DNA of 64,000 bases from Octopus sinensis (taxonomy: Eukaryota), in the NCBI RefSeq assembly GCF_006345805.1, contig NC_042997.1:59396001-59460000 (forward strand), given 5' to 3'. Below the pieces are notes generated by a model, which was given only the letters and a program-made list of their open reading frames with translations, was not told the origin of the DNA and made no database searches. The position numbers were made by a program, and so were the translations under genes. Positions 35,686 to 57,520 of this stretch are shown here, in pieces. Positions within the stretch are counted from its first letter, which is position 1. Each line of letters opens with the position of its first letter.

Positions 35686-36370
35686 TAATGTAAATATATG
35701 TATATATAATTATCTGTAACCAAATAATTGTACATTTTTCACTGCTGCCTTTTACAATTTGAACACAGTTCACAGACTCTGCTTTGGGAACTTTTAGTCA
35801 ATGCAATTGCTTCAACTGTTAGAAATAACAGCTAAAATCTCTCAAATTAGAACCTACTTTCTGAAAACAAGGAAAGACACTGGATAATGTAGTCTTAGAT
35901 ACACACAAAGCCTGAGTACTTGTAATTGGAATATCTTTGATCATGTATATGCTTGATTCAGAATCCAAGCTAAATGATTACTAGTCAAGAGTTGATCTGC
36001 ATTTTCAATCTTCTTATAGAGATACAATGAAAATTAACGATTCTTCTGAAGTAACCTATAATATAATTTGTTCACTGACAGGTGAGTAGTGGACTGATGG
36101 TGTACACAACAACCTGCAATATTATAATATATCCCTTATAAAAGTATCCTAGGTAAGAATGGAATTATAAGAGAAGATACATCCCACTTACTGCTAATTC
36201 ACTGGAAAGGTATAAAGTCACGGCTTCTATTATCAGTATGTCTCTATCCCTTTCATAAAATAGTAAAATGAGGAGAGAGAGAGAAAGAAAGAGAGATGTT
36301 CAAACAAACAAGCAAACCTTAGGTGGACATTATTTACATTTGACAGATATTTGTCCTCATCTTGTTTGTT

Positions 36371-36420
36371 GTTAACACAATGTTTCGGCTGATATACCCT
36401 CCAGCCTTCATCGGGTGTCT
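36371..36420 (-). ncRNA. Minimal hammerhead motif, family HH-A
   Basis: GACAC-CCGATGA-A-GGCTG...CAGCC-GAAA-CATT-GTGTT, with point decay relative to the family consensus. Confidence 0.7.
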
Positions 36421-36482
36421 GGGTTCTCATTCCTAAGATATTTTTTGATGTTATTATTTATTCTTCTTTTTATTATTATTCA

Positions 36483-36555
36483 TGTTACTGCTTGGAATTG
36501 AACTCAGAATCTTGGGGTTAGTAGCCCACACTCTTAACCACTATGCCATATGCCT
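36483..36555 (-). other. tRNA-like module inside Penelope 3' region/pLTR
   Basis: TGGCATAGTGGTTAAGAG A-box, anticodon loop CT-ACT-AA and GAGTTCAATTCC B-box. Confidence 0.75.
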
Positions 36556-36889
36556 GTGGACAATTATGGAGTGAATTTTAGGGCTTATAAATCTAATATT
36601 TTCCTATCCTTCCTTAATATTGGTCCCATATACTATTCATATCTGCACTCGGCCTACTTAGGAGGTTGTGCCCTAGCAAATGTGCTGCTTCTTTAAGTTT
36701 TAGTATCTTCTAGCAATTGCTCTCTTTACACTGAATGGATGGTGGGAACTGAAGTTCAGGTACCGTTCAGTTGAGGTTGGCTTGCGGTATATGGATGTCC
36801 TGAATCCATACTTGGTGCGTGCTATTAATATCTACAGCATTAATATGTAGCATTCCTGGAATGAGAACCCAGGTTCGAAATTTCCCCAA

Positions 36890-36935
36890 GACACCTGATG
36901 AAGGCTGGAGGGTATATCAGCTGAAATGTTGTGTT
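36890..36935 (+). ncRNA. Minimal hammerhead motif, family HH-A
   Basis: GACAC-CTGATGA-A-GGCTG...CAGCT-GAAA-TGTT-GTGTT. Core intact, with two CpG-type changes in the stems. Confidence 0.75.
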
Positions 36936-37784
36936 AACAACAAACAAGATGAGGAGAAATATATGTCAAATGTAAATAATGTAAATAATTCCTCTTCTCT
37001 TACATACAGAACTGTATAAACCTTGGGTGGTTTATATACTGCATGAAAACCTGCTTTAATGACTTCCAGCTCTATGACAATAGAAAGACGTTTGTGAGTT
37101 TATAAAAATGTATTCATTAGTTGAACCATCCCACCTCTTATTCACACACACCTACACAGAGTTTTATATAGAAAAAAATATTGCAAATTAAACAAAGATG
37201 ATAAATTTTATTCTCTAATCGAATAACTTCCAAAATTAAATATTTTATATAACAGCTTAAGTTGGTGTTGGCATATTTAATGCAAGGAGCCTGCTAATAC
37301 GTGTTGAATCATATCCAACGTATGAGAATTACAAACAGAAGTCAATAGGAAACAAGATAAAAAATAAGCCAACAAGGAAGCCTCTATGAGTTGATAAACC
37401 TGCTAGTAATAGCAAACAAATTTCCTTCAGATCACAACCTATTGCAGATTTTAACTAATATTTTTCACCCTTGGGTAACCCTGGAAATAAATTTCATGTA
37501 ACAAGCAACCTTTAGTTAAAAGGTATAATAAGTCTTTATTAATCTTTTTTCGTAATAAAGTTAAATGTCATAAGCCAAACAGTATGTATTTTTCTGATGA
37601 CTAGTTTAATGTGGGTGGTTGGGAAGACATAAGTATTTCTCAAGTGTACTGACAATGCAAAAAATTAGCAGATATCAAACTGCTTGTTCAAAAGATTTCA
37701 TAAGGTTTTCATTTGTTATCGTCATTATCATTGCTCCTGCTACCACCACCTTTGCAACCATCACCACCACCATCATTATTTTAA

Positions 37785-43170: not shown

Positions 43171-44213
43171 TCTACGGCTGTATGCTACGCATATCTGCAC
43201 TAGTTCTGCCCCCTAAACATACATACCACTCCAACTATGAAGAGAAGAGAGGGTGAAGCCCATAAACTGACTACAGTCTGTCTAGCCTATGTGAAATGTT
43301 TCTCCGAAAAGATACAAACGATATGCGACCCATATGACATCAGGACAATATTCAAGAGTAATACAACACTTCACAAATATTCAAGAGTAATACAACACTT
43401 TCCAAATATCTCCACCAATAGAAGAGAATATGACCAAAGATTGCATGTACTCCATCCCATGCAGCTGTGGTAGGTTATACAAAGGTGAAACATGCCGCCC
43501 CCTCAATATAAGTGTAGAGGAAATTCGTTAAGTTATGACATGAGGAGATATTGATAAATTGGGTATAGTTGATCATGTATGGAAAAATGGAGACCACCTC
43601 CCCCTGTGGGATTAAGTTAAAATAATAGACAGAGAACACCACTGGAAAATACGAAAACTAAAAGAGGCAGCACATATGCTAGGACATAATAACCTCCTAT
43701 GTGAAATGTTTCTCCGAAAAGATACAAAAGATATGCGACCCATATGACATCAGGACAATATTCAAGAGTAATACAACACTTCACAAATATTCAAGAGTAA
43801 TACAACACTTTCCAAATATCTCCACCAATAGAAGAGAATATGACCAAAGATTGCATGTACTCCATCCCATGCAGCTGTGGTAGGTTATACAAAGGTGAAA
43901 CATGCCGCCCCCTCAATATAAGTGTAGAGGAAATTCGTTAAGTTATGACATGAGGAGATATTGATAAATCGGGTATAGTTGATCATGTATGGAAAAATGG
44001 AGACCACCTCCCCGTGTGGGATTAAGTTAAAATAATAGACAGAGAACACCACTGGAAAATACGAAAACTAAAAGAGGCAGCACATATGCTAGGACATAAT
44101 AACCTCCTAAGCAGACCTAGTGCAGATATGAGTAGCATATGGGAACCAGTATTAAGGAAGGATAGGAAAATATTAGATTTATAAGCCCTAAAATTCACCC
44201 CATAATTACCCAT

Positions 44214-44286
44214 GGTCATATGGTGTAGTGGTTAAGAGTGTGGGCTACTAACCCCAACATTCCAAGTCCAAATCCAGGCAATGACA
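44214..44286 (+). other. tRNA-like module inside Penelope 3' region/pLTR
   Basis: GGTCATA-TGGTGTAGTGGTTAAGAG-TGTGGG-CTACTAA-CCC...CAATGAC. Confidence 0.7.
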
Positions 44287-44338
44287 TGAATAATAATAAT
44301 AATAATATTGGAAAAATACCTTAGGAATGAGAAACCAG

Positions 44339-44385
44339 GACACCTGATGAAGGTTAGAGAGTACATCAGCCAAAACGTAGTTAAC
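44339..44385 (+). ncRNA. Degenerate hammerhead motif, family HH-A
   Basis: GACAC-CTGATGA-AGGTTAG...CAGCC-AAAA-CGTAG. GAAA lost by a CpG-type change. Confidence 0.6.
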
Positions 44386-44649
44386 AACAAAGATAAGGAC
44401 AAATATCCGTCAAATGTAAATAATATATATAATTCCTCATCTCTAAAATATAGAAATATATATACATACACATATATAAAAATGCACATTCACATATATG
44501 CACACACACATATTAATTTTGGGGACACTAAATAGCTTTGAATGTATGTGGATTTGGTGGATGGAATCTGACAGCAGCATGTATAATGATATTTAACACA
44601 GTTCATATGTCTGTGAGTACCTGTGTGTGACATGAAAAGACATATTTTG

Positions 44650-56602: not shown

Positions 56603-57126
56603 TCTTCTATATATATATATAAAACTGTAGTTGTGTGAGTGTCTGTCTCCTACGATTTAGATTCCTAACTCCTCCCACATTTTGCGGTGCAGTTTAACCA
56701 AATTCGGGTATCTTATAGTCGTGATTAATATCGAGCCCGTCTGGCTATTAGCGCGCGTCTACGATGAGTCTACGATTTTAAAAATAATTTAACATCATTT
56801 TTTATTCCATTTTAATGCATAATTTTTCGTGTGTTGATGGCGGCGGAGTTGGCATCCACGCTCAAACACCTGCACCTGTGTTTGCTTCTCCTCCTTCTTC
56901 CCTCCCTCGTGAAGCTGTGGGGAAGGGATTTTAAGGAAATCAACGTCGTAATGCGTTGTCAAGGAGACCAGCGTTCTTTTAGAACAACGACTTCATGGCT
57001 TGAAGACACCAAAACAGAAATGGCTAAGAAAGCCCGAATTGGCATCTATAAGGGAAGTAACTCTCTAAAAATGCTTATATAGTTATTTCCCTTACAAACC
57101 CGAGCAACGCCAGACAATACTGCTAG
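56603..57126 (+). mobile_element. Non-autonomous Helitron H1
   Basis: Near-identical reverse complement of 1497-2014. Ends GCTAG. Confidence 0.88.
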
Positions 57127-57520
57127 TTATATATAAAAGTGAAGTTGTGTGTCTGTCTCCTACGATTTAGATTCCTAACTACTCCCACATTTTGTGGTGC
57201 AGTGTAACCAAAACCGGGTATCTTATAGTCGTGATTCATATCGAGCCCTTCTGGGTATTAGCGTGCGTCTACGATGAGTCTACGATTTAAAAAAAATTTA
57301 CCATCATATTTTTCCATTTTAATGCATTTTTTTCGCTATTATGTAAGGGAAGTAACTCTCTAAAAATATCTACGATGTATCAACGATTTAAAAAAAATTT
57401 ACCTTAATTTTTTTTCCATTTTTAATGCATTTTTTTGCTATTTTTTGGCTATAACTCTCTAAAAATGCTTATATAGTTATTTCCCTTACAAACCCGAGCA
57501 ACGCCGGGCGATACTGCTAG
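57127..57520 (+). mobile_element. Non-autonomous Helitron H1-related shorter variant, head-to-tail with the previous copy
   Basis: Same 5' and 3' ends, lacks the central GC-rich part, ends CCGGGCGATACTGCTAG|T. Confidence 0.85.

Follow-up and report, generated by a model that had tools for sequence, protein, structure and literature searches.

Results of our analysis indicate that two repeats in the window (the whole stretch of 64,000 nucleotides of Octopus sinensis DNA considered here) are decayed members of one Penelope-like element (PLE) family of the Penelope/Poseidon type. This family, present in thousands of copies in the analysed genome of 2.72 Gb, carries a tRNA-like head in its pseudo-LTR (pLTR), and 55 of 86 sampled tRNA-bearing copies start within positions -8 to +17 of this head. 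RNA polymerase III (Pol III) probably starts at the head, yielding SINE-like solo pLTRs, and may also read through the open reading frame (ORF) of the element.

Insertions in the window and the family they represent

The two copies, A (44160-44424, plus strand) and B (36609-36329, minus strand), are 82% identical to each other (E 6e-77), which confirms the original prediction of two real insertions; the order and junctions that it described as common to both (ORF end, tRNA-like head, (AAT)n, hammerhead, tail) were also found. Copy A spans about 43181-44461. At its 5' edge lies an inverted short piece of the ORF end (43181-43209, minus strand; 93% match to 44111-44139 on the opposite strand), followed on the plus strand by a broken 3' part of the ORF with the linker and the GIY-YIG endonuclease (43206-44184; 83-85% identical to near-full-length copies and 64-66% to protein P0014 in tblastn), which ends with the stop codon at 44182-44184. 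The distance from this stop to tRNA +1 (44214) is 29 nt (spacer 44185-44213, plus strand, read from the sequence), and not about 50 bp as given originally. The head of copy A (44214-44287, plus strand), assigned by alignment and called by neither ARAGORN nor Rfam, resembles tRNA-Arg(ACG) with a broken cloverleaf and includes an A box (44221-44231) and a decayed B box (44264-44275). Its GGTCA/TGAC ends, taken at first for acceptor ends, are a private change of this copy, since all 36 other copies have G at position 3. Further along the plus strand are the (AAT)n spacer (44289-44308), whose length varies between copies, an ATG (44327-44329) homologous to the start of the 835-codon frame of the family, a decayed minimal type I hammerhead within the N-terminal frame (44339-44381; architecture as in PMC4209133), with AAAA in place of GAAA in its core, and the pLTR end with a PLE tail of about 35 nt (44382-44461), delimited by the 3'-end clusters described below. 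The ORF part of copy A also holds a 410-bp tandem duplication (43286-44109; TRF period 410), which is near-perfect (99%) inside an old, decayed copy and is either a recent event or an assembly artefact.

Copy B, originally placed at 36327-36620 only, is one larger insertion (36327-37017). Its main arm (36327-36713, minus strand) comprises the ORF end, spacer, head (36482-36555), (AAT)n, ATG (36428-36430) and a decayed hammerhead (36374-36419), the core of which reads CCGATGA. Next to it are an internal fragment of the reverse transcriptase (RT) region of the same family (36712-36830, minus strand; 86% identical to family copies, detected also by tblastn) and an inverted pLTR arm (36858-37017, plus strand) with an ATG, a hammerhead (36890-36935) and the full tail. 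The insertion is bordered by a 13-nt target-site-like repeat (36314-36326, plus strand, and 37018-37030; 12 of 13 positions identical). The window also contains a young dispersed repeat in the form of a 413-nt inverted pair (1486-1898 and 56725-57137; 97% identical).

The repeat unit of the family is about 2.66 kb long. After the end of the ORF and a 29-nt spacer come the tRNA head, the (AAT)n tract, the ATG, the hammerhead and the tail, beyond which the ORF continues. The commonest codons (column-majority counts, 50 aligned rows) form an open frame of 835 codons, and copies match the column majority over 92.5% of their positions. The ATG of this frame lies 126 columns past the tRNA start and 34 ahead of the hammerhead core, so that the hammerhead and the tail are inside the N-terminus of the ORF. 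The near-full-length copies L061 and L062 code for an RT with a GIY-YIG-type domain after it. The RT assignment is based on a PF00078 match (E 1e-7); the Pfam GIY-YIG model gave no match to the family protein, and this domain was assigned via its motif and via a PF01541-positive PLE to which it is weakly similar (E 4e-4). The protein motifs are DKG (295), YVDD (534-538) and YSIPCxC..YKGET (727-741). The family has the features of EN+ PLEs: an RT and a GIY-YIG endonuclease encoded in one ORF, pLTRs that contain a minimal type I hammerhead, partial tandems, inverted 5' arms and a tail of 30-40 nt. Locus L350 has the structure pLTR-ORF-pLTR, its 3' pLTR stopping after the tRNA; an inverted arm is present in 46 of the 86 tRNA-bearing copies, and their 3' ends cluster at 230-249 (35/86) and 260-269 (31/86). 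Insertions with the same flanks, found on several contigs or repeatedly nearby (L061, L101, L111 and L112; L206, L207, L209 and L210), are either segmental duplicates or redundant contigs, and such duplicates were dropped from the counts.

Cysteines of the family protein occur only at positions 621, 676, 691, 725, 731, 733 and 742. The CX2-5CxxC linker of Neptune and Nematis, a known clade mark (PMC8557442), is thus absent from it and is present in our control families, which points to the Penelope/Poseidon clade as the probable position of the family. The ORF is present in five organisms and protein relatives of 56-68% identity exist; the DNA of these relatives was not found in the metagenome (two scans), prokaryote genome and viral collections searched. 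The called N-terminus of protein P0021 resembles a translated inverted hammerhead arm, which suggests that a relative in another organism may have the same minimal hammerhead.

The tRNA-like head and the starts of copies

Scored against 13 host tRNA types (a set without Arg-TCG, Arg-CCT, His, Asp and Glu, among others), the head appears closest to tRNA-Arg(ACG), with 52 of 74 positions identical and a z of 7.6 against shuffles, and on these grounds we regard it as tRNA-derived. Alignment scores were 67 for Arg-ACG, 59 for Gln-CTG, 58 for Arg-TCT and 51 for Thr; an origin from tRNA-Thr was rejected on its score. The original objection that the ACT loop does not fit tRNA-Ser was justified, the simplest reading being a mutated ACG of tRNA-Arg. 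The stems of the head (D, anticodon, T and acceptor) are each partly broken, with 3 of 5 pairs left in the T stem and 5 of 7 in the acceptor stem of the family majority, so that the intact cloverleaf of a tRNA gene is missing. The head was not called as a tRNA by ARAGORN or Rfam at default settings, ARAGORN called none of 15 family loci and gave mostly noise when relaxed, the folding of the head has a z of about 0, and minimum free energy folding recovered neither the cloverleaf nor the hammerhead. Both boxes of a type 2 Pol III promoter are nevertheless intact in the family and have tRNA spacing: the A box TGGCGTAGTGG at +8 and the B box GAGTTCGATTCC at +51 (column counts, 61 alignments). The two boxes predicted originally are therefore real as family features, although the B box of copy A itself has decayed. 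Intact boxes together with broken stems look like the pattern of a promoter retained without a working tRNA. A palindrome of 10-12 nt surrounds tRNA +1, the end of the spacer being its first half, and the head contains an upstream ATG with a 2-codon frame. A TATA-like word from the last codons of the ORF lies about 28 nt upstream of the presumed start, which in AT-rich DNA is weak evidence.

Several further observations concern host tRNA genes. About 90 tRNA-Arg(ACG) genes form a tandem array with a spacing of about 206 bp (G000:C2:3121912-3157897), and seven tRNA-Cys genes, one with an ACA anticodon, are clustered at L160 (G000:C12:22959503-22962574). A very young LINE-like family with intact RT frames of about 878 codons (L363-L391) occurs mainly on unplaced contigs, and tRNA genes too are located on several of these; possibly, this family targets tRNA genes.

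As had been proposed from the two window copies, the head is an intrinsic part of the element and not a later SINE insertion. When copies were taken in genome order by an ORF-end word, the head followed the ORF end in 25 of 30 and the hammerhead in 29 of 30; the five head-less ORF ends are deletions with differing breakpoints, one of which retains +1 to +23. In a similarity-ranked ORF-anchored set the head was present in 24 of 30, two of these being the window's own copy. Six of 30 N-terminus-anchored loci (L082, L086, L087, L088, L093 and L095) have the head in a 5' pLTR that runs into the ORF, the remaining ones being mostly truncated nearer the ORF, and L350 has it in both pLTRs. Solo and ORF-linked copies have an identical majority base at every tested column, including the seven columns that differ between them at P<0.01, two of which reflect the search word.

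These data bear on the possibility that the head belongs to a free, hammerhead-bearing tRNA SINE of the Sm-alpha kind, a family of its own that only sometimes stands behind a PLE ORF. Short units do outnumber ORF-linked ones by about 3 to 1, and target-site-like repeats accompany some of them; the original prediction had itself named a head and tail occurring mainly as a free SINE as evidence against it, and this holds by half, in that short units of head and tail form the majority of copies. However, the head sits at one junction in the 25 of 30 ORF ends, no diagnostic substitutions separate the two groups, and the body of the short units is the ORF's own N-terminus. The short units are solo pLTRs that bear the ATG and the N-terminal frame of the family; they are not a separate SINE, that is, a non-coding family independent of an autonomous partner, but the family's own pLTR. 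A free SINE is thus a very unlikely and largely refuted explanation.

Genome-wide counts of exact 20-mers, which depend also on the conservation of each word, increase from 808 at the ORF end and 1,024 in the spacer (-36 to -17) to 4,811 in the A-box region (+4 to +23, CpG left degenerate) and 3,719 at +29 to +48, an increase by a factor of 3.6 to 4.7 over some 65 nt across the head start; the counts for the hammerhead and the post-hammerhead words are 7,386 and 12,042. The 5' ends of individual copies were determined for 90 of the first 100 tRNA-core matches listed, from which four duplicates were removed (n=86). They fall at -8 to +5 (38 copies), +6 to +17 (17), +18 to +29 (1), -25 to -9 (10, several of which are short inversions read through the palindrome) and further upstream (20). 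The rate of ends is 0.059 per nt at -8 to +5 vs. 0.0014-0.003 upstream. Among 30 copies anchored at the tail, 12 start at -6 to +6, one near the hammerhead cut, and three run upstream of the head; the other 14 start in between or carry deletions. The starts of long copies were of both kinds: L350 starts at -2 and continues through the whole ORF to the second head, and L086 (start -2) and L088 (start +4) enter the ORF, whereas L082, L087, L093 and L095 include sequence upstream of the head. The accumulation of 5' ends at the head, with few at the cut site, indicates that the templates mostly began at the head and not at the ribozyme. The signal of RNA reads (three unstranded runs, one organism) follows copy number.

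The hammerhead, as read from the copies, consists of CUGAUGA, an extra A, a 5-bp stem II, GAAA, a palindromic AACGUU and a 5-bp stem I. Both main-arm cores in the window are broken, and it is in other copies that the predicted motif is intact, both core words being kept in 13 of 63; Rfam gave no match to the minimal hammerhead. Self-cleavage as the determinant of transcript ends, proposed originally, did not withstand the comparison of starts: cleavage was ruled out as the 5'-end determinant, since it would set the copy end in just 1 of the 30 tail-anchored copies, and the 3' ends lie at PLE tail positions downstream of the ribozyme. Templates that start at the head and not at the ribozyme agree with the green anole element PAc, in which cleavage is not required for insertion (PMC11167929). 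Of the originally proposed pair, a captured tRNA promoter and self-cleavage, the former is supported by the 5' ends at the head and by the lack of terminators described below.

Copies starting at the head could also arise without initiation there. The head may be what remains of an ancient SINE or tRNA insertion into a master copy, with ends produced by cDNA fold-back or annealing at the palindrome and with transcription by Pol II as in Drosophila Penelope. The peak of ends coincides with the 10-12-nt palindrome, which could stop or fold cDNA without any promoter, many inverted pairs join exactly at the +1 palindrome, other short palindromes of the pLTR are also junction sites, and known PLE promoters lie in the pLTR, where they overlap an intron (PMC8557442). 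However, the same peak persists in the 40 copies without an inverted arm, of which 17 end at -8 to +5 (36 at risk). Moreover, 17 of 85 ends fall at +6 to +17, short of the palindrome, as expected of a nibbled RNA end, the A and B boxes are intact despite the decay of the stems, and the missing terminators would be left unexplained. We therefore consider fold-back improbable. Far less probable still is that RNase P processes a long Pol II transcript at the tRNA-like structure and so generates RNAs beginning at +1. It has a precedent in that tRNA-like modules are cut by RNase P elsewhere, e.g., in MALAT1, and several copies do begin at +1 or +2, but 11 non-inverted copies keep 1-8 nt before +1 vs. 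six that start at +1 to +5, and in the family majority neither the T stem nor the acceptor stem is intact. Initiation of transcription by Pol III at the head, to which the boxes and the starts of copies point, is quite likely.

Terminators and the extent of transcription

Pol III terminates at four or more T (PMC3141230), and an element read by Pol III is thus predicted to be free of such runs (T4); this absence was set as a prediction before counting. Among 2,997 majority columns of the sense strand there is no T4, nor is there one in the 835-codon frame, and individual natural stretches of 1-2.6 kb (n=40) contain 0-2. Base shuffling of L061 gives an expectation of 5.6 (P 0.002), synonymous permutation one of 2.9 (P 0.029), and the codon usage of other PLEs one of 3.4-4.0 (P 0.029 and 0.015); L062 has two T4 runs (P 0.06). 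The controls were Neptune-type PLEs and other retroelement families, and all 13 control families carry T4 runs: 8-13 in the long ORFs of two Neptune-type families of the same base composition (7/7), and 6-17 in each of the other RT families of the genome (11/11). No B box was found near the control Neptune-type ORFs in the three scanned. A search of G000 for a Penelope/Poseidon sister family devoid of the tRNA returned the same family at 30 of 30 loci. Part of the gap to the controls results from the low phenylalanine content of the protein (2.4% vs. 3.95% on average for 69 other PLE proteins), which is shared by close relatives. Runs of G4 are absent too (expected 1.0, P 0.28), as are three self-chosen degenerate terminator-like patterns (0 vs. 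expected 1.2-1.9, not significant). The signal of T4 absence is real but moderate, with P of 0.015-0.03 when the protein is held fixed.

The Neptune-type families themselves (L442-L447 and L455, e.g., C1:207473500-207481500) are young, with intact ORFs of about 780 aa and copies 98-99% identical. Upstream they have another open frame, as long as 479 codons, which overlaps the start of the RT frame.

A doubtful but weightier alternative than those above is that Pol III makes short RNAs only, solo pLTRs being mobilised in trans, that Pol II transcribes the ORF and the full-length element, and that the lack of T4 is a by-product of a phenylalanine-poor protein. In accordance with it, 66 of the 86 copies are short units from -25 or later and none of all 86 reaches the ORF N-terminus, flanking T4 runs occur at a median of 320 nt past +1, just beyond the tail, the P for the T4 absence is only 0.015-0.03, and Kojima (2024) argues that Pol II is obligatory for autonomous elements (PMC10886601). 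Against it stand L350, which extends from the head through the whole ORF, L086 and L088, which start at the head and enter the ORF, the T4 runs in every control family, and the concurrent lack of the degenerate patterns.

Under initiation by Pol III at the head followed by read-through, transcription would begin about 6 nt upstream of tRNA +1, and the element protein would prime reverse transcription at an internal site, the tail, which lies some 230-270 nt downstream; a start of reverse transcription at the tail was shown in vitro for PAc (PMC11167929). Such an internal start would make most products SINE-like solo pLTRs of about 250 nt. Read-through of the T4-free ORF into the second pLTR would give a full-length copy starting at the head, and the hammerhead would play no part in setting copy ends. 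Transcription of the whole unit by Pol III is, on the sequence data, a tentative proposal, somewhat short of evenly balanced, and slightly more tentative is the notion of one element that acts as its own LINE and its own SINE, with the Pol III transcript as mRNA. This model does not account for the translation of an uncapped Pol III RNA; alternatively, Pol II reading through tandem copies may be the source of the protein.

Relation to known elements and significance

Among the closest counterparts of the octopus family are PLEs of the Penelope/Poseidon clade, such as PAc (PMC11167929). They share with it a single ORF coding for an RT plus a C-terminal GIY-YIG domain, pLTRs, an ORF start that adjoins a minimal hammerhead (in PAc, too, the hammerhead and tail are in the N-terminus), a tail of 30-40 nt with its 3' ends at two positions, inverted arms truncated at the 5' end and variable target duplications. 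In contrast, the available text of that report describes no tRNA-derived head or Pol III promoter in Penelope/Poseidon PLEs, including PAc. Penelope differs in that its promoter overlaps the pLTR intron (PMC8557442), unlike the octopus family, with its 5' ends at the tRNA head and its T4-free sequence. The head, a putative Pol III promoter derived from a small RNA and located in the terminal repeat, has its counterpart in the TRIMp3 elements Cassandra, Helenus and Ajax (PMC10886601), which are, together with Sm-alpha, the nearest parallels. Cassandra is transcribed from repeat to repeat, and the tRNA-like sequence of Helenus probably does not function as a tRNA (PMC10886601). However, TRIMp3 elements, which have PBS/PPT but lack an ORF, belong to the non-autonomous LTR elements and do not exceed 1.3 kb, in contrast to a PLE with pLTRs and a 2.5-kb ORF.

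The schistosome Sm-alpha and Sj-alpha repeats are likewise tRNA-derived, SINE-like, high-copy and hammerhead-bearing (PMC2770079). Sm-alpha differs in being non-coding and, in S. mansoni, related to tRNA-Gln (PMC2770079), and its hammerhead is canonical, in contrast to the minimal one of the octopus family (PMC4209133); the available text of PMC2770079 does not present these repeats as pLTRs belonging to an autonomous PLE. Non-LTR retrozymes of animals (bioRxiv 10.64898/2026.07.22.740005) resemble the short copies as non-autonomous hammerhead units related to PLE pLTRs. They are tandem repeats, for which the available text mentions no tRNA or promoter, whereas the octopus short copies are dispersed singles or inverted pairs. 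Minimal hammerheads in PLE pLTRs were already known (PMC4209133). A 2026 octopus repeat annotation (PMC13282606) lists, in its accessible part, Penelope and SINE families with no such link, and the octopus SINEs OR1 and OR2 have been classed as CORE-SINEs. Our search of open literature, seen in part and lying outside Repbase, Dfam, SINEBase and subscription journals, where a SINE entry is possible, found no PLE with a tRNA head; nor did it find, again outside subscription journals, an autonomous retrotransposon under Pol III. The element that appears to be new is thus a PLE with a tRNA head in its pLTR, and hammerheads in pLTRs and retrozymes derived from pLTRs are not.

Pol III is thought to make short non-coding RNAs only, and its promoters are taken as confined to short non-autonomous elements (SINEs, TRIMp3), because it stops at T runs and makes uncapped RNA. 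If the proposed transcription is true, a T4-free coding frame of 2.5 kb under a tRNA head would be a natural exception to the rule that autonomous elements are transcribed by Pol II only, and would open the questions whether Pol III can make translated RNA and which promoters PLEs use. In its weaker form, the finding would describe a route from a PLE pLTR to SINE-like elements. The PLE pLTR is a possible origin of repeats of the Sm-alpha type that combine a tRNA with a hammerhead, and thousands of repeats in the genome analysed would be wrongly classed as SINEs or as tRNA pseudogenes.
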